59,470 nucleotides of DNA from a bacterium (lineage in GTDB: Bacteria > Electryoneota > RPQS01): positions 1 to 59,470 of the forward strand of contig JAHJDG010000127.1 of assembly GCA_018812265.1 (NCBI GenBank), written 5' to 3'. A program made the position numbers and the translations under genes. This document shows positions 48,400 to 56,020 of this stretch, piece after piece. Every line of letters begins with the position of its first letter. Position 1 is the first letter of the stretch. The notes under the pieces are model-generated. The model saw nothing but the letters and a program-made list of their open reading frames with translations, did no database searches and had not been told where the DNA came from.

Positions 48400-50295
48400 C
48401 TACTCGCGAGGCTCGCCGCCTTCTTCACCCTCCTCGCCTTTCGTGGGAGATTCTTCAGGGGGAGTTATTTCTTTCCCAGAGGACGGTTGATCCACTGTCG
48501 GCGGCAACGGAGTCGGCGGCTCATCCATGTCGCTGCCGATAATATACTGCTGGTAGGCATCGTCCTCCGGCTCTTCGGCGGCCGACTCCTCCGCCGGCGC
48601 CTGGGCCGCCAAAATGATCTTCTTCGACTCCTTGTCGAACTCAATCACCTCGAGCTGCAATTCCTCACCGACCGAGATCGCTTGCTTGCCGCCGCGAGTA
48701 ACGCGCTTCAGTTGGCTGTTGGGAGCGAAGCCCTCCACGTCCTTCGGCAATTCGACGACCACGCCTTTTTCGAGAACGCGCGCAACTTTGCCGGTGGTTC
48801 GCGTTCCCACCGCATAGAGCTGCGCGAACTCATCCCACGGATTCGCCTGTGCCTGTTTGAGTCCAAGCGCAATGCGACGTTCATTCCGATCGAAACCGAG
48901 GACGACGATCTCGACCTCTTCTCCTTTCTTCAGAATCTCACCGGGGTGACGCACGCGCTTCGTCCACGACAGATCGGAAATGTGAACGAGACCGTCAATG
49001 CCGTCTTCCAGTTCGACGAACGCCCCAAACGGTACGAGATCGCGAACCCGTCCGACGTGGCGCGTTCCCACCGCGTATTTGATTTCGAGGTTCTCCCACG
49101 GATCCGGCTCCACCTGCTTCAGTCCCAAAGAGATCTTGCGATTCTCCTTGTCAATACTGAGGACGACCACGTCAATTTCATCGCCCACCGATAGAAGGGC
49201 CGAGGGATGCTTGATATGCTGAGTCCAGCTCATTTCACTGATGTGAACCAGCCCTTCGAGACCTTTCTCGAGCTCAACGAATGCTCCGTAGCGGGCAATC
49301 GAAACGACGCGCCCATGCACTTTCGCTCCCACCGGATACTTCTCTTCCACTCCTTCCCAGGGATGAGGCTGGAGTTGTTTCAGCCCGATGGAGATGCGCT
49401 GGCGCTCCTTGTCGTAGTCGAGAACCTTGACGGTGATCTTCGAATCGAGTTGAACCAGCTCGGACGGATGACTGACGCGTCCCCAGGAGAGATCGGTGAT
49501 GTGCAGCAAACCGTCCACACCCCCGAGATCAACAAAGACGCCGAAATCGGTGATGTTCTTCACGCTACCGGTCATCACGTCGCCGACCTTGAGCTCGCCG
49601 AGCACCTTCTCGCGGATTCCGGCCAGGCTCTCTTCGACGATCACTTTTCGCGAAACCACGATATTCTTGCGCATATCGTTCAGCTTCACGATCCGAAATT
49701 CCATTTCGTTTCCGACGAGGGCGTCAAAGTCCCGCACCGGATGCACGTCAATCTGTGAACCGGGAAGGAACGCGTCTATCGAGAGGACGTCCACCACGAA
49801 ACCGCCCTTGATGCGACGCATGACCTTGCCGCGGATAATCTCCTGATCGCGATAGATCGCTCCAATGCGCTCCCAAATCTTGAGGAAGTCCGCCTTTCTC
49901 TTGGAAAGGATCAACTGTCCTTCAGCATCTTCCACACGATCAAGATAGACCTCGACGTCATCGCCGACGTTGAACGATTCACCGGGCGCGAATTCCTCAA
50001 TGGCAACCGTGCCCTCGGACTTGAATCCAATGTCAATCGAGATTTCTTTCTCGCCGACGGCGATAATCTTGCCCTTGATGATTTCGCCCTCGCGGAACTC
50101 CATAATCATCTTCTCATAGAGTGCCGCCAAGTCCTGAGTCTCATGGGACTCGGTCTTGCTTTCGGGCAGTTCCTCCGGGCGGACCTTGCGACCGCGAAAA
50201 CGCACTTCTTCGACGATTCTCTGAGGCTCAACGGACGCCGGCACAGGTTCGCCGGCGGGTGTCGGCTCAGGAGATGGGTTTGGGGTTTGATTCAT
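48400..50295 (-). CDS. rpsA: 30S ribosomal protein S1
   Basis: Six S1 repeats (DIGFKSEG, FLPGSQ, FGVFVDLGGVDGLLHITD, GLVHISEMSW); acidic Pro-rich termini. Confidence 0.97.
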   Translation of the reverse strand: MNQTPNPSPEPTPAGEPVPASVEPQRIVEEVRFRGRKVRPEELPESKTESHETQDLAALYEKMIMEFREGEIIKGKIIAVGEKEISIDIGFKSEGTVAIEEFAPGESFNVGDDVEVYLDRVEDAEGQLILSKRKADFLKIWERIGAIYRDQEIIRGKVMRRIKGGFVVDVLSIDAFLPGSQIDVHPVRDFDALVGNEMEFRIVKLNDMRKNIVVSRKVIVEESLAGIREKVLGELKVGDVMTGSVKNITDFGVFVDLGGVDGLLHITDLSWGRVSHPSELVQLDSKITVKVLDYDKERQRISIGLKQLQPHPWEGVEEKYPVGAKVHGRVVSIARYGAFVELEKGLEGLVHISEMSWTQHIKHPSALLSVGDEIDVVVLSIDKENRKISLGLKQVEPDPWENLEIKYAVGTRHVGRVRDLVPFGAFVELEDGIDGLVHISDLSWTKRVRHPGEILKKGEEVEIVVLGFDRNERRIALGLKQAQANPWDEFAQLYAVGTRTTGKVARVLEKGVVVELPKDVEGFAPNSQLKRVTRGGKQAISVGEELQLEVIEFDKESKKIILAAQAPAEESAAEEPEDDAYQQYIIGSDMDEPPTPLPPTVDQPSSGKEITPPEESPTKGEEGEEGGEPRE

Positions 50296-50355
50296 AGAAG
50301 ATTCCCGATTGCTTTGCGCCCGCCCGGGAACTTGACGGGGTTGAGTTGAAACAGA

Positions 50356-51036
50356 TTATCTGAGACGTTCATCATCAATCACACTTCGCTCATAGACCGG
50401 TCCCCTGGACGGCGATGGATCCTGAGCGAAAACCAGCGACAGATCGCGAATGCGCTCCACGACGGCGTCCGACACGGCCTGATAGAGCTCCCGTCCCCGA
50501 AGACCCTCCGGCATCAGTTCCGAGGCCGGGATCGAATGCCCGAACGTAACCGCCACTCCCGGTCGGCCTCGCAATCTCGGTGATGCTTGGGCCGTCCCGT
50601 GAAGATAGGCCGGAATGACCGGCGCGCCCGAAAGACACACGACCCAACCCAGACCCAGCTTCGGCTTCAGGAATCCATCTTCCGGCGCGCGGGTGCCCTC
50701 GGGGAAAAACGCCAGAGCTCCATTCTGCCGGAGGACGTCCAAACATTTAGCCAGTGCCGTACGGTCAAACTCACCGCGGCGGACGGGAAAGGCATTCAGA
50801 TAACGGAGGAATCGCCCGAGCAGCGCGTTGCGAAAAAGTTCCTCCTTGGCAAAGTAGTGAAGTTCACGCCGGACCACCGCTCCCAGCAGCGGCGGATCGT
50901 AGTTCGAGCGATGGTTCGACGCGACGATAATCGGGCCGGACTCGGGAATGTTCTCAACGCCGTGAATGGAGATTCCGCATCCCAAACGGAATAGTCCCTG
51001 AGCCAATCCCCGAACCAGGGCATACCCCTGACGCAT
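50356..51036 (-). CDS. plsC: 1-acyl-sn-glycerol-3-phosphate acyltransferase
   Basis: HX4D motif NHRSNYD, FAKEEL, FPEGTR. Confidence 0.88.
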   Translation of the reverse strand: MRQGYALVRGLAQGLFRLGCGISIHGVENIPESGPIIVASNHRSNYDPPLLGAVVRRELHYFAKEELFRNALLGRFLRYLNAFPVRRGEFDRTALAKCLDVLRQNGALAFFPEGTRAPEDGFLKPKLGLGWVVCLSGAPVIPAYLHGTAQASPRLRGRPGVAVTFGHSIPASELMPEGLRGRELYQAVSDAVVERIRDLSLVFAQDPSPSRGPVYERSVIDDERLR

Positions 51037-51039
51037 GGA

Positions 51040-51735
51040 TCAACCTTTGCGCCGCGCGGCCATCACCTTCCTGGCCATTTCCACCACATGCTCGACCTGA
51101 TCCCCGATCGTGAGATGTGTCGTGTCAAGCTCGATGGCATCTTGCGCCTTGCGAAGAGGACTGTGCGCGCGCGTTGAATCCCGATCATCGCGAGTCCGAA
51201 TGGCGGATTCAACCTCGTCAAGGCTCTGCTCGATGCCACGACCAAGCATCTCCTTGCGTCGCCGCTTCGCGCGCGTCTTGACGTCCGCGACCAAGAATAT
51301 CTTCACGTCGGCGTCGGGAAAAACCACCGTGCCGATGTCCCGGCCGTCCAACACGATCCCGCCCGACTTGCCGAGTTCGCGTTGCCATCCGACGAGGTGC
51401 TCGCGAACGCTCGGATCTTCCGACACCGGACCCACCCACAGCGATACTTCGGGCGAACGGATCTCATCGGTCACGTCTTCATCGTCGAGAAGGATTCTTG
51501 TTTGTGACCGATCTTCCTTCTGGCTGACCGTCGTCGCACGCAGAAGGGCAGCCACTTTGCCCGCGTCGGTCAATTCGATTCCGCAACGGAGCATCTTGAG
51601 AGCGACGGCACGATACATCGCACCCGTATCCACGTGCATGTATCCGAGCCGTTGAGCGACCAACTTGGCGGTCGAGGATTTCCCGCTGCTGGCCGGGCCG
51701 TCTATGGCGATCACTAATCCGGACGACCGACTCAC
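51040..51735 (-). CDS. cmk: Cytidylate kinase
   Basis: IAIDGPASSGKSS, DTGAMYR, DGRDIGTVVFPDA, RDDRD. Confidence 0.96.
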   Translation of the reverse strand: MSRSSGLVIAIDGPASSGKSSTAKLVAQRLGYMHVDTGAMYRAVALKMLRCGIELTDAGKVAALLRATTVSQKEDRSQTRILLDDEDVTDEIRSPEVSLWVGPVSEDPSVREHLVGWQRELGKSGGIVLDGRDIGTVVFPDADVKIFLVADVKTRAKRRRKEMLGRGIEQSLDEVESAIRTRDDRDSTRAHSPLRKAQDAIELDTTHLTIGDQVEHVVEMARKVMAARRKG

Positions 51736-53435
51736 GATTTGATTCGACCACCCTTCTCTTCTTCGATGAAGATGTGCGTGACGATCTTTCCGGCAAAGAA
51801 CTCTTCTCCCTCACCCAACATGCACCGTTCCCACGGAAAGGCGGACGAAGTGTCTTCCGCCGCTTCGCCCGTGGTAGCCGCGTAGAAGTCGGCGATGCGC
51901 TGCTGCCACTTCTTCATGTTGGACGGTCGCAGATCCAGCCAGCCCTTGTCCGCCCATTCATCTATGCAGCCGTCCCACATCGGAATTTCATTGCTGCCGG
52001 AGTAGGCCGGGATTTTCACTTCCGGGCCACGCAGAATGCTCTTGCCGTCGGGAAGAAGAATGGGAACGCCGATCGAGATTATCGTGGCCCGCAGCTTCGA
52101 ATCCTTCCGGAGAATGCTCCAAAGCTCTTCGGAGACGACCTCCGGTCTGATGTTCACCGACGACGACGGATCCGGATACGCCCGTTTGATCAGGTGCGCC
52201 TCATAAAGCAGTTTGGAAAGGTGCGGCGGGCCGAGCATTTCAAACGCGACACTCGAAATCCCGTGTTCATGCTCGAGACGTTGCATCTCTCCCAAGGCTG
52301 CGCCCCGCAGAATGGCGGCTCGATACGACGGCCCCATCGCGACCGCGTCCAACGCTCCCACGACGTCGAAACCGCTGTTGCCGCCCTCGATTTCCCACAA
52401 CACGGCATCGGCGATTTCCTCGGGAGTTACGAACTCCATTTGCTGTGCCGCCGTGATCGTGAAAAACTCCCCGGCCGAGAAGATTCCGTTTTCTCCCGTG
52501 TCAATAAACACCGATTTCAGATTATCTCCCGTTGATTCGCCGCTGTCGGGGTGATTCCTTACGAACGTTCCGCCCAGAAGCTCGGGCTTCTCGGGACTGC
52601 AATCGTAGAGCGGAATGGGACGGCCGCCCCGAAGCACTTCGCCGTACGCGATTCTCTTCCAGGCGATTGCCGCCGCCGGTTTGACCTCCTTGACGTACGG
52701 ACAACCCGGTGTGCGCGCCATCAGAAACAGCAACATGGTATGCGCGCCGGCCATGGAAGATTTGGCGAGGAGTTGCGCCGACGGCTTTTCTTCGGAATGT
52801 GTGTACGGAATATTGAAACCCATGCCGCCGGTGCCGGTCGTCCCCACTTTAATGTACGTGTGAACCCCCGTCTGACTGGACGATTCCGCCAAGACCTGAA
52901 TGTGGCGGATCAGCTGCGGGACATAGACCGTTCCGCAAAAACGCTCCATCCGGTCAAGGATAGAATCGTCCACCGGAGTCCGCTTGGCGTGCATTTCGAA
53001 GATACTCTTCACGTCGTAGTACGCCGAATAGATGTCCTGATAGGCGAATCCCGTTGCGGCATTCACGCAATCCACGATAACGTCGGGACGGTGCTCCGCA
53101 ATAAGACGATGCAGGAAGAACACCTTCAGCCGTTCGGGCGTCAGCTTCTCGAAAACGTCTTCGATGAATTGCCGTCGAAGCTGCGGTTTGCTCATAACTT
53201 CGCGACGAGGAATGTCTTTGAAATCCTCGCGTACGAAGATGTCTCCCCACGCCGGGGTCATGGTGACCTTGGGAAACTCGGCTTCGAGCTCGCGGACCGC
53301 CTCCTCGGCCTCCGACTGTCGAAGCGAAAGCACGATAATCTTCGACGGCCCGCGCGAAAGAATTCGACGACAGACCGCCATGCCAACAAGCCCCCACCCG
53401 CCCAGCACCATCACGGTTGAATTTCTCAGCATCAT
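51732..53435 (-). CDS. Uncharacterised 567-aa protein with an N-terminal NAD(P)-binding Rossmann (atypical SDR-like) domain
   Basis: VLGGWGLVG (GxxGxxG), PDVIVDCVNAA, KVGTTGTGG; overlaps the scpB stop and the cmk start. Confidence 0.7.
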   Translation of the reverse strand: MMLRNSTVMVLGGWGLVGMAVCRRILSRGPSKIIVLSLRQSEAEEAVRELEAEFPKVTMTPAWGDIFVREDFKDIPRREVMSKPQLRRQFIEDVFEKLTPERLKVFFLHRLIAEHRPDVIVDCVNAATGFAYQDIYSAYYDVKSIFEMHAKRTPVDDSILDRMERFCGTVYVPQLIRHIQVLAESSSQTGVHTYIKVGTTGTGGMGFNIPYTHSEEKPSAQLLAKSSMAGAHTMLLFLMARTPGCPYVKEVKPAAAIAWKRIAYGEVLRGGRPIPLYDCSPEKPELLGGTFVRNHPDSGESTGDNLKSVFIDTGENGIFSAGEFFTITAAQQMEFVTPEEIADAVLWEIEGGNSGFDVVGALDAVAMGPSYRAAILRGAALGEMQRLEHEHGISSVAFEMLGPPHLSKLLYEAHLIKRAYPDPSSSVNIRPEVVSEELWSILRKDSKLRATIISIGVPILLPDGKSILRGPEVKIPAYSGSNEIPMWDGCIDEWADKGWLDLRPSNMKKWQQRIADFYAATTGEAAEDTSSAFPWERCMLGEGEEFFAGKIVTHIFIEEEKGGRIKS

Positions 53436-54205
53436 GGGTTGGCGTCCTTCTCGGGATCAGTTACTTCAACCGGTGGGATCGGCCACCGGCCATTATCCGT
53501 TTCCTCCGTGGGATCAATCGTATGTGGATCGGAGGATGATTCGTCGGTACCGAGCTCCATTTGGGCGTGCTCCTCTTCGCGTCGCTGGCCCCACTCGCGC
53601 AACAGCTCGGAATCTCTCGGCAAATCAGACAGGTCGGACAGTCCGAAATGCTTCAGGAAGTCCGGCGTGGTCTCGTACAACAAGGGTCGCCCCAGCACGT
53701 TGGCTCGACCGCGCACCGCGATCAAGCGGCGGTCCAGCAGCGTCCGCAGAACACCGCCGCAATCCACGCCGCGAATTTCGTCAATCTCCGTCCGCGTGAC
53801 CGGACCGCGAAAGGCAATGACGGCCAGCGTCTCGAGAGCCGCCCGTGACAGGCGAGAACGAGCCCGCTCGGCAAACAGTTTGCGCAGAACTCCGGAGTAG
53901 TCCCGGCGCGTGAAAAACTGGTAGCCGCCGGCGACGTGCAGAATCTCGAAAGCGCGTCCTTCCCGCTCATAATCCATGTTCAGCTCACGCACGAGATCGG
54001 GCAGCTTCGTAGCGTGCCGCTTGCCAACCGCCGCCGTAAACTGGCTCTCCGTCAGCGGTTCGGTACTGGCGAAAATCAAAGCCTCGGCCGCCGCCTTGAG
54101 AAACGATCCGTCGCGTTCCGGCTCCTCCGCTTCCACGGGATCGTTCTCCACCATCGAATCGTGCAGCTCGTCCCGGTTCTCTTCTGGCTCACTCATGATT
54201 GTCAT
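53432..54205 (-). CDS. scpB: SMC-Scp complex subunit ScpB
   Basis: EALIFAS, VAGGYQF, LSRAALETLAVIAFRGPVTR, IRGVD, GRPLLYETT..FLKHFGL. Confidence 0.96.
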   Translation of the reverse strand: MTIMSEPEENRDELHDSMVENDPVEAEEPERDGSFLKAAAEALIFASTEPLTESQFTAAVGKRHATKLPDLVRELNMDYEREGRAFEILHVAGGYQFFTRRDYSGVLRKLFAERARSRLSRAALETLAVIAFRGPVTRTEIDEIRGVDCGGVLRTLLDRRLIAVRGRANVLGRPLLYETTPDFLKHFGLSDLSDLPRDSELLREWGQRREEEHAQMELGTDESSSDPHTIDPTEETDNGRWPIPPVEVTDPEKDANP

Positions 54206-54942
54206 GCCGCCTGCAACTCCGGAACGTGCGCGCGGCTTAGAAAGATCTCGGAGAACGTCTCATTCTGCTCGACGCGTACCTGCTGCCGCTTCGCCAACTC
54301 AAGCACGGCCAGGAATGTCACGATAAACACCATGCGCTCCAGGTCGCGATCGAGTTGCTTCAAGAGCCCAAATCGTCCCAGTCTCTCGATGAGCGCAAAC
54401 ACCCATCTCATCCGCTCCTCAAGGCTCACCTTGTGAAGTCGCACCTGATGGAACAACCGGCTTTCCTTGCGACGCAAGACGTCCTCAATCGCGCACGTAA
54501 GGTCATAGATCGTCATCGGAAAAAGGTACTCGGTCGGCTCGGGTCGCGCGGAATCGGGAACGGGCGACCGTCCGGTCTCCCAGCGCTCCAGCATATCCGC
54601 TTCGTGATGTCCAAACCGCTCCGCTTCTTCCTTCGTCTTTTGATAGAGCAGGAGACGCTCGATAAGCTCGCGGCGCGGGTCCTCGACTTCCTCCATCTCC
54701 TCAACTTCGGGTCGCGGCAGCATCAATTTCGCCTTGATGGCGATCAGCGTGGCCGCCATCACCAGATAGTCGCCGGCCTCTTCCAGATTCTCAACGCCCA
54801 TCGCTTCGACCACCGCCAAGTACGAATCCGTGATCTCGGCCATCGGAAGGTCCAGAATGTCGTATTCCTTCCGCGCCACCAAGAACAGCAGCAGATCCAG
54901 CGGTCCCTCGAAGCGGGGTAGTTTCACCTGCCACACGCTCAT
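54202..54942 (-). CDS. scpA: Segregation and condensation protein A (kleisin)
   Basis: FEGPLDLLLFLV, YLVMAATLIAIKAKLMLP, FLAVLEL. Confidence 0.96.
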   Translation of the reverse strand: MSVWQVKLPRFEGPLDLLLFLVARKEYDILDLPMAEITDSYLAVVEAMGVENLEEAGDYLVMAATLIAIKAKLMLPRPEVEEMEEVEDPRRELIERLLLYQKTKEEAERFGHHEADMLERWETGRSPVPDSARPEPTEYLFPMTIYDLTCAIEDVLRRKESRLFHQVRLHKVSLEERMRWVFALIERLGRFGLLKQLDRDLERMVFIVTFLAVLELAKRQQVRVEQNETFSEIFLSRAHVPELQAA

Positions 54943-55955
54943 CCGAACCCCATTACGTCGTGGACTTCACGCATGGTGGCTTCGGCGGTCCGGCCGGCGC
55001 GAGCCGTGCCGTCCGCAATGATCTCTTCGACCTCGCCGGGATGAGATTCGTAGTGTTGTCGCCGCTCGCGAACCGGAGCCAGATGCTCGATGATACTCGC
55101 CGCGCAGCGTTGTTTACAGTCCACACATCCCAAAGCTCCGCTCTCGCAGCCCTGCCGGATCTCGGGAACGATGTCGCCGTTAAATCGGTTTTGGTAGGCA
55201 AACACCAGACAGATATCGGGATGGCCCGGATCATTGCGGCGAATCTTCTGTGGATCGGTTACGGCCTGCCGCATCTTCTTCTGAATTTCTTCCGGCGAGT
55301 CGGAAATGAGAATGGTGTTGCCCAGCGACTTCGACATGCGCCGTCCGTCCAGTCCGGGCAATCGCGGAAAGTTCGAGAGCACGCCTTCCGGTTCGGGAAA
55401 GACCGGCCGGTCGGGCGAAAAAACGTTGTTGAAGCGGCGGGCGATTTCGCGGGTCACCTCGATATGCGGGAGCTGATCTTCTCCCACCGGAACGGCTTCG
55501 CCCTTGTACATGAGAATGTCGGCGGCCTGAAGAACCGGATAGCCCAAGTGACCGTAGGTAACGCGGGCTTCAAGTTCGAGATCGCGAATTTGTTCTTTCA
55601 ATGTCGGATTTCGTTCGAGGCGGGCCGTCGTGATCAGCATGGAAAGCAGCAGATGGAGTTCTGCGTGCTGTTTCACCTGAGATTGGATGAAGAACGGACT
55701 CTTCCGGGGGTCGAGACCGGCCGCCAGCCAGTCCGTAACCATCTCCAACGTGTTCCCGCGGATGAGTCGGGTGTGTTCGTAGTCCGTGGTCAGGGTATGC
55801 CAGTCGGCGACGAAATGATAGCTCTCGTATTCATCCTGCAAACCAACCCAGTTTTCAAGCGCCCCCACGTAGTTTCCCAGATGGAGTCGTCCGGTCGGCC
55901 GCATGCCCGAAAGAAGGCGTTTTTTTCGTGGACTTTTTGAAGCTGATTCTGGCAT
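54939..55955 (-). CDS. trpS: Tryptophan--tRNA ligase
   Basis: SGMRPTGRLHLGN, YPVLQAADI, VPVGEDQ, MSKS. Confidence 0.97.
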   Translation of the reverse strand: MPESASKSPRKKRLLSGMRPTGRLHLGNYVGALENWVGLQDEYESYHFVADWHTLTTDYEHTRLIRGNTLEMVTDWLAAGLDPRKSPFFIQSQVKQHAELHLLLSMLITTARLERNPTLKEQIRDLELEARVTYGHLGYPVLQAADILMYKGEAVPVGEDQLPHIEVTREIARRFNNVFSPDRPVFPEPEGVLSNFPRLPGLDGRRMSKSLGNTILISDSPEEIQKKMRQAVTDPQKIRRNDPGHPDICLVFAYQNRFNGDIVPEIRQGCESGALGCVDCKQRCAASIIEHLAPVRERRQHYESHPGEVEEIIADGTARAGRTAEATMREVHDVMGFG

Positions 55956-55997: not shown

Positions 55998-56020
55998 CCG
56001 GATCGCCGCTGGCGATCCGG
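55988..56020 (-). terminator. Intrinsic terminator after the propeller gene
   Basis: Perfect 10-bp stem CCGGATCGCC/GGCGATCCGG with a 3-nt loop, then TTGCTATTTT. Confidence 0.65.

Follow-up and report, generated by a model that had tools for sequence, protein, structure and literature searches.

We describe here a 567-amino-acid (aa) protein of a bacterium of the phylum Electryoneota, encoded within a 59,470-nt stretch (positions 1 to 59,470 of contig JAHJDG010000127.1, assembly GCA_018812265.1; this whole stretch is referred to below as the window) by a gene located between scpB and cmk, which we label gene X. This gene very probably encodes an oxidoreductase of the Ind2 family (PF27054, an accession of Pfam 38.1), and we favor, by analogy with Ind2 and with moderate confidence, a role as an enzyme that uses NAD(P)H to reduce 2-oxo acids derived from amino acids, i.e. 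a 2-hydroxy-acid dehydrogenase. A preliminary description of this DNA had proposed a “novel NAD(P)-binding enzyme or sensor”. Its NAD(P)-binding character held up, with a fold derived from the short-chain dehydrogenases/reductases (SDRs), whereas its novelty did not, since PF27054 is already catalogued and one member, Ind2, is characterized. What remains new is biochemical, namely the substrate of the clade to which gene X belongs, a mechanism that does without the canonical Tyr, and an unmatched C-terminal domain.

51732..53435 (stop codon included), minus strand: gene X, ATG start codon, 567-aa product, very probable Ind2-family (PF27054) atypical SDR oxidoreductase, from the list of open reading frames, their translation, and the Ind2 alignment.

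A word-indexed search retrieved more than 7800 homologs of this protein, nearly all about 565 aa long and named either “short-chain dehydrogenase” or “hypothetical”. When representatives at 50% identity were searched exhaustively, 239 clusters were recovered at E ≤1e-30. The PF27054.1 annotation was precomputed on 120 of 120 homologs among the matches listed, including the cluster of a 100%-identical 328-aa fragment, and the nearest ESM Atlas clusters were also in PF27054, under the name Beta_methylindole_red_C (feature score 0.99, TM 0.86); the assignment of gene X was thus made through these homologs and clusters rather than by a direct scan with the PF27054 model. Ind2 was reached by searching from a high-G+C Polymorphospora representative, and then through the cluster of a Streptomyces match. 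This 570-aa protein of Streptomyces griseus has the Swiss-Prot name Beta-methylindole-3-pyruvate reductase and, according to two papers, is an NADH-dependent ketone reductase that converts 3-methylindolepyruvate to indolmycenic acid in indolmycin biosynthesis (PMC8246080, PMC5925218). Neither PF27054 nor the enzyme name was mentioned in any paper found by our literature search.

BLASTP aligned gene X and Ind2 end to end, with 31% identity over 554 columns (E 1e-68). The two proteins are alike in length, in architecture, and in having no SDR Tyr, and they have in common the motifs GxxGxxG, DxVNxA, KVxTTGxGGMGxNxPYTH, PAAxIxW, LGPxxSKxLxE, and GWxDLRP, along with the Lys of helix alphaF. In an alignment of 41 diverse family members, the invariant or near-invariant columns kept in Ind2 comprise G12/G15/G18, P117, D122, N125, K196, T199-T200, and G201/G203/G206, followed by PYTH, K225, P253, R377, G402, K408, E412, D501, and W510. 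Because nearly all family-invariant columns are also conserved in Ind2, gene X and Ind2 would appear to share one catalytic apparatus. Their settings differ, however: Ind2 comes from an actinobacterial antibiotic gene cluster, whereas gene X is a single-copy core gene of phyla of the Fibrobacterota–Chlorobiota–Bacteroidota (FCB) type, located in a housekeeping operon, and indolmycin-type chemistry is not expected of it.

The motifs and predicted domains of the gene X protein are as follows, with the basis of each in brackets.

53382..53402, minus strand: GGWGLVG, residues 12-18, dinucleotide-binding GxxGxxG loop (motif search and family alignment).
53055..53084, minus strand: DVIVDCVNAA, residues 118-127, predicted strand beta4 and NNAG-like motif (model and motif position).
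52797..52856, minus strand: YIKVGTTGTGGMGFNIPYTH, residues 194-213, family signature after beta5 (alignment, model, and motif position).
52761..52775, minus strand: QLLAK, residues 221-225, in predicted helix alphaF, the YxxxK site without its Tyr (model and alignment).
52677..53435, minus strand: predicted NAD(P)-binding Rossmann/SDR core, residues 1-253, beta1 to beta6 (AlphaFold2 (AF2) model, VIA-align, and Foldseek).
52326..52676, minus strand: predicted beta-rich insertion in the SDR substrate-loop region, residues 254-370, with the last core strand at its end (model and SDR alignments).
51735..52325, minus strand: family-specific, mainly helical C-terminal domain, residues 371-567 (model, structure searches, and conservation).

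Within the 41-member alignment, G12, G15, G18, and P117 are invariant and D122 and N125 nearly so, the Ind2 counterpart of the second motif being IVIDAVNSA. The signature after beta5 is almost identical in the two proteins (YIKVGTTGTGGMGFNIPYTH in gene X, IKVSTTGLGGMGYNCPYTH in Ind2) and contains, at residues 198-206, the GTTGTGGMG loop that the preliminary description had listed along with GxxGxxG, DxxVDCVNAA, and QLLAK; all four are present. In the model, T199/T200 would occupy the catalytic Ser/Thr site of SDRs, and Y211, T212, or H213 might stand in for the missing catalytic Tyr. That the canonical YxxxK is absent had been recognized from the outset and was borne out here: residue 221 is a Gln, in a column that is variable across the family, and K225 is nearly invariant. 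Ind2 likewise has no Tyr four residues before its alphaF Lys, which is kept. As Ind2 is active without this Tyr, its loss would, by analogy, be a family trait compatible with catalysis and not the mark of a dead enzyme. No acidic residue follows beta2, where gene X has SLR and the NADH-using Ind2 has TSR.

The AF2 model built from the family alignment (predicted local distance difference test (pLDDT) 87.9, predicted TM-score 0.86) points to an SDR core with large insertions that extends from the N-terminus to about residue 370. In VIA-align, the SDR 6nkh was the best match (Z 18.0, root-mean-square deviation 3.0, 233 residues aligned), with more than 600 chains at Z ≥8 and SDR alignments covering that same range of the model. 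Foldseek gave a probability of 1.00 to many SDRs (top matches PglF, Pen, and 3pvz; E about 1e-5 to 1e-6), and its first ranks were PglF/CapD-type dehydratases, whose entry titles include variants at a Met replacing Tyr. Along the model, beta1 carries the GxxGxxG loop, beta4 the VNAA motif, beta5 the Thr pair 199-200, alphaF K225, and beta6 P253; the core is interrupted by helical insertions at about residues 65-115 and 135-190, and conserved blocks DTGENG and MEFVTPEE lie within residues 254-370. Gene X thus has the Rossmann/SDR topology of classical and extended SDRs (MalC 6nkh, sorbose reductase 3ai1, AerF 6jh7) and of PglF/CapD-type enzymes (5bju, 6bwc, 3pvz), at Z 16-18 over about 200-245 aligned residues, and like them combines a Gly-rich NAD(P) loop, an NNAG-like motif after beta4, Ser/Thr after beta5, an alphaF Lys, and a Pro after beta6. 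Unlike these SDRs, the protein is about twice their size, carries about 150 inserted residues and a C-terminal domain of 200 residues, has no catalytic Tyr, and is only 10-18% identical to them.

Searches with local Pfam-A and NCBIfam models returned only sub-threshold N-terminal Rossmann matches, the SDR models falling short of their cut-offs over residues 7-73 (KR, 21.1 vs 22.6; Epimerase, 19.0 vs 20.9; Polysacc_synt_2, 18.8 vs 20.2). When the protein or the family profile was compared with PDB sequences, the similarity found was again N-terminal and of Rossmann type only, and no solved family member appeared. The C-terminal domain has conserved positions of its own, including R377, LGPPxLSKLLxE (402-412), and GWxDLR (498-503). 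Folded alone, it reached a pLDDT of 72.5 and gave no structural match (best VIA-align Z 4.8 among 48,161 chains, best Foldseek E 3.3), a result that stands for no match found and is not proof of a new fold. An unrecognized C-terminal region of about 300 aa had been described previously; an unmatched part does exist, yet it is confined to the last 200 residues or so, as the SDR core reaches to about residue 370.

A FastTree phylogeny of 128 full-length family members splits into two halves. Gene X falls within a 76-row clade with 100% local support (clade B, or “core” clade), together with KSB1, Calditrichota, Marinimicrobia, Ignavibacteria-type, and other sequences, and the other half comprises Ind2 with further actinobacterial sequences, a large group from gut Clostridia, and paralogs from a few genomes of the phylum of gene X. 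In that phylum, 76 of 79 genomes (50 of the 51 high-quality ones) carry gene X, in single copy, without internal stops, and at 46-83% identity, and it is a core gene under purifying selection. More broadly, the core clade occurs in nearly all KSB1-like bacteria and extends to Calditrichota, Marinimicrobia, Ignavibacteria, and Gemmatimonadota, and gene X occurs as a single copy in 49 of 201 sampled Bacteroidota genomes. The gene is native to its genome, since its G+C matches that of the window (0.576 vs 0.580).

Clade A paralogs, found in gut Clostridia (e.g., Clostridium sp. CAG:557) and in two genomes of the phylum (G007 and G076), have the family and architecture of gene X at 30-34% identity. 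In the latter two genomes, which represent two families of the phylum, a 551-aa clade A paralog (31-34% identity) ends an operon for a xanthine-dehydrogenase-type molybdoenzyme with 2Fe-2S, molybdenum cofactor, and FAD subunits (G007:C1 7985-13995; G076:C182 7179-14342), to which G007 adds a YtoQ-like gene; these paralogs are accessory rather than core and probably have other substrates. Two metagenomic members have unusual architectures: one of 685 aa joins a truncated N-terminal half of gene X to a following PPIC-type peptidyl-prolyl isomerase, and one of 924 aa has a 3-hydroxyacyl-CoA-dehydrogenase C-domain (3HCDH) ahead of a complete X-like part. Both architectures are represented by one sequence only and may be artefacts of gene calling or assembly.

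We surveyed gene order around 96 species-dereplicated gene X loci. Two of these carry a same-strand operon with genes for the beta/gamma subunits of a 2-oxoacid:ferredoxin oxidoreductase (OFOR), then buk (butyrate-type kinase), ptb (phosphate butyryltransferase), and gene X (L056/L075), and shorter OFOR-type operons consist of gamma-ptb-X (L070) or ptb-X (L087). Elsewhere, gene X follows an enoyl-CoA hydratase gene and a fused E1 alpha-beta gene of branched-chain 2-oxo acid dehydrogenase (BCKDH) (L128/L129/L132). Further same-strand neighbors include an S46 dipeptidyl peptidase downstream in 5 loci, an alanine-transaminase-like aminotransferase in 4, and an aldehyde dehydrogenase in 10. The informative neighbors, and likewise the 3HCDH domain of the 924-aa member, all act in the formation or use of 2-oxo acids derived from amino acids or of the corresponding acyl-CoA products, which fits the precedent of 2-oxo acid reduction by Ind2 and lends support to a 2-oxo acid reductase. 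That amino-acid-derived 2-oxo acids are the substrate class, as these neighborhoods in other lineages suggest, is in our judgment about an even call. Elsewhere in its own genome, gene X is accompanied by one ptb-like gene and four POR-gamma (OFOR) loci. A different arrangement was seen in three genomes of the Bacteroidota sample (L125, L127, L135; also L110), where the next gene downstream of gene X, in the same orientation, encodes a protein of about 1600 aa with a C-terminal sorting domain of the type IX secretion system, and a SIS+CBS (KpsF/GutQ-like) gene comes after it.

Taken together, the product of gene X is probably a cytoplasmic and catalytically competent NAD(P)H-dependent oxidoreductase, from a family in which an SDR-derived fold has lost the canonical Tyr and acquired large insertions as well as a helical C-terminal domain of its own. 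The enzyme would most likely reduce a 2-oxo acid at its C2 carbonyl with hydride from NAD(P)H, giving a 2-hydroxy acid, or run in reverse, and the substrates of the core clade are likely to be 2-oxo acids that come from branched-chain or aromatic amino acids. Gene X would then probably form a reductive, redox-balancing branch beside the oxidative routes that lead through OFOR or BCKDH to acyl-CoA and on to ptb/buk. In amino-acid fermentation, the NAD-dependent 2-hydroxyacid dehydrogenases (phenyllactate, hydroxyisocaproate, and indolelactate dehydrogenases among them) belong to the lactate dehydrogenase (LDH) or D-2-hydroxyacid dehydrogenase families. The role proposed for gene X would resemble theirs, although the folds and families are unrelated.

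Several observations weigh against a 2-oxo acid reductase of this kind. Gene X is a paralog and not an ortholog of Ind2, because the two fall in separate halves of the tree. The reaction class is thus taken by analogy from a single characterized paralog, and at 31% identity the substrate and even the reaction type of gene X may differ. The SDR catalytic positions were mapped by the order of secondary-structure elements and not by residue-level superposition. Informative neighborhoods make up only about 19 of the 96 loci, none of them from the phylum of gene X, where the context is purely housekeeping, and at 26 loci of Ignavibacteria type the only context is a divergent EIIA-2/hisS one. Finally, retention in 76 of 79 genomes and location in the trpS…rpsA operon look more “essential” than would a fermentation side branch. 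One could envision the core clade as an unrecognized central enzyme of FCB-type phyla, with a Tyr-less mechanism, a new substrate-capping domain, and an essential housekeeping product (e.g., a 2-hydroxy acid), a possibility we regard as tentative and rather unlikely. If it were true, retention in the operon would reflect a product needed for growth and not a dispensable fermentation valve.

Given the same neighborhoods, gene X might instead encode an amino-acid dehydrogenase or imine-type reductase, which would work on the same 2-oxo acids together with NH3 and feed OFOR or BCKDH. Leucine dehydrogenase (Bcd) sits in the ptb-bcd-buk-bkd operon of Bacillus, and gene X similarly comes directly after ptb or BCKDH-E1 in the loci described above. 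The longest profile alignments to the PDB were, in addition, to leucine dehydrogenases, in their NAD domain (6acf over residues 6-152, E 1.5e-4; 3vpx; 8hpe). These matches represent weak Rossmann-level similarity, however, and the predicted fold of gene X is of the SDR and not the ELFV type. Moreover, Ind2, the sole characterized member, yields a hydroxy acid and not an amino acid, and aminotransferases that already supply 2-oxo acids adjoin gene X in some loci. We thus consider an amino-acid dehydrogenase unlikely.

A non-orthologous replacement of the ketopantoate reductase PanE, which converts 2-dehydropantoate to pantoate, appears less likely still. The genome of gene X, which is 97.5% complete, has adjacent panB and panC (C201:21842-23514), and an ApbA search of it gave only three weak matches, to GpsA, a 3-hydroxyacyl-CoA dehydrogenase, and a UDP-glucose dehydrogenase (C136, C189, C98), with no true PanE. 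Ketopantoate is also a beta-branched 2-oxo acid, as is the substrate of Ind2, and CxnC, a PanE homolog, has been proposed as the functional equivalent of Ind2 (PMC5925218). In the Bacteroidota sample, however, at least 11 of the 49 gene X-positive genomes also encode a clear ApbA/PanE (E 1e-19 to 1e-43), and ApbA occurs in at least 14 of the 152 gene X-negative ones, so that there is no anti-correlation; these counts (at least 25 of 201 genomes with a clear ApbA) are minima, as not all first-look candidates were scored. Two further points argue against such a replacement, namely that IlvC can supply ketopantoate reductase activity, and that (R)-pantoate and (2S)-indolmycenate have opposite C2 configurations.

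A role tied to the partners of gene X in its operon, either the SMC-ScpAB condensin or the supply of nucleotides or phospholipids through cmk and plsC, is another possibility raised by gene order. The genes concerned, identified by Pfam, are all on the same strand.

54939-55955, minus strand: trpS (Pfam).
54202-54942, minus strand: scpA (Pfam).
53432-54205, minus strand: scpB, upstream neighbor of gene X (PF04079, E 2.1e-51).
51040-51735, minus strand: cmk, downstream neighbor of gene X (PF02224, E 5.6e-70).
50356-51036, minus strand: plsC (Pfam).
48400-50295, minus strand: rpsA (Pfam).
48400..55955, minus strand: probable single transcription unit trpS-scpA-scpB-X-cmk-plsC-rpsA (overlaps and short gaps, hairpin placement, and gene order in relatives).

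The placement of gene X within this run, as first described, was confirmed, and so were the 4-nt overlaps at both of its ends: ATGA at 53432-53435 combines the scpB stop with the gene X start, and GTGA at 51732-51735 the gene X stop (TGA) with the GTG start of cmk. From trpS to plsC, adjacent genes overlap or are separated by gaps of ≤3 nt, and rpsA is preceded by a 60-nt gap. A terminator-like 10-bp G+C-rich hairpin with a T-rich tail, located on the minus strand at 55998-56020 between a BtuG-like gene and trpS, marks the start of the unit. Because this hairpin, the only strong terminator-like site within 47.9-56.2 kb, lies upstream of trpS, the run from trpS to rpsA is probably one operon.

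The overlaps on either side of gene X, its near-universal presence in the phylum (76 of 79 genomes), and the retention of the order scpA-scpB-X-cmk-plsC all speak for a link to these partners. This order is kept in the 27 loci of own-phylum relatives with flanks that reach the neighbors, down to 53% identity, and also in Calditrichota-type genomes, with an RluB/RluF-like pseudouridine synthase gene between scpB and gene X; of 29 own-phylum loci in relatives, 26 have gene X adjacent to scpAB. Across the 96 loci, though, cmk follows gene X in 14 and scpB lies within 3 genes in 10, and the other 82 loci, all outside the KSB1-like and Calditrichota lineages, have neither scpB nor cmk close to gene X. 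No locus of Ignavibacteria type or from other Bacteroidota has scpB nearby, and the 26 loci of Ignavibacteria/Melioribacter type show a divergent EIIA-2/hisS/lgt/SpoU context. ScpB was detected in 177 of the 201 sampled Bacteroidota and gene X in 49, and where both occur they are hundreds of kb apart or on separate contigs (e.g., 1.99 vs 1.60 Mb in G086, 1.16 vs 3.74 Mb in G119). The operon moreover mixes unrelated housekeeping genes such as trpS and rpsA, and the similarity of the C-terminal domain to Mycobacterium tuberculosis ScpB is at noise level (Z 3.4, rank 39).

The adjacency of scpB, gene X, and cmk is therefore a lineage-specific trait of an old array of unrelated housekeeping genes and not a functional link, and a role tied to the operon partners is improbable. 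The condensin connection that the preliminary description had put forward as speculative does not hold beyond KSB1-like bacteria and Calditrichota, and its other suggestion, that gene X is a metabolic passenger in a housekeeping operon, is now the best-supported view. Outside these two lineages, the neighborhood survey it had called for essentially found homologs of a family with a known function that are rarely next to scpAB. Gene X thus illustrates how genes that are tightly coupled in translation within a housekeeping operon can wrongly seem to be linked in function.

A non-catalytic NAD(P)-sensing or regulatory protein would be in line with QLLAK in place of YxxxK and with SDR Pfam models that all remain sub-threshold. 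It is nonetheless highly improbable, as Ind2 works as an NADH-dependent reductase despite having no Tyr at this site either, the polar residue block is invariant across both clades, and the nearest Foldseek relatives, PglF-type dehydratases, include variants at a Met replacing Tyr. A replacement of prephenate dehydrogenase (TyrA), for which one can cite only that tyrA often sits upstream of cmk in Actinobacteria and Pseudomonas and that Ind2 binds an arylpyruvate, is hardly credible and was rejected, as the genome of gene X has two PDH_N-containing genes (94.8 and 53.4 bits), PDH_N occurs alongside gene X in 20 of 23 genomes of its GTDB family and above cut-off in 33 of 79 genomes of the phylum, and the Phe/Tyr branch may itself be incomplete.

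On this last point, prephenate dehydratase (PF00800) was detected in 0 of the 79 genomes of the phylum and in 14 of 14 control genomes. Families f1 and f2 of the phylum have two adjacent PDH_N genes of about 380-390 aa, at C19:19963-21567 in the genome of gene X. Either the Phe branch is absent or replaced in this phylum, or the PDH_N genes serve another function. Replacement of Mdh/Ldh or of a D-2-hydroxyacid dehydrogenase was also considered and rejected, both being already present in the genome of gene X, with no obvious gap to fill.

For annotation purposes, gene X and its core-clade homologs are more accurately described as Ind2-family (PF27054) NAD(P)H-dependent oxidoreductases, probably 2-oxo-acid reductases, than as “short-chain dehydrogenase” or “hypothetical” proteins, and gene X should not be treated as a condensin partner. 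Overall, knowledge of the biochemistry of gene X would close a gap that recurs when the metabolism of KSB1, Calditrichota, Marinimicrobia, and Ignavibacteria is reconstructed from genomes.

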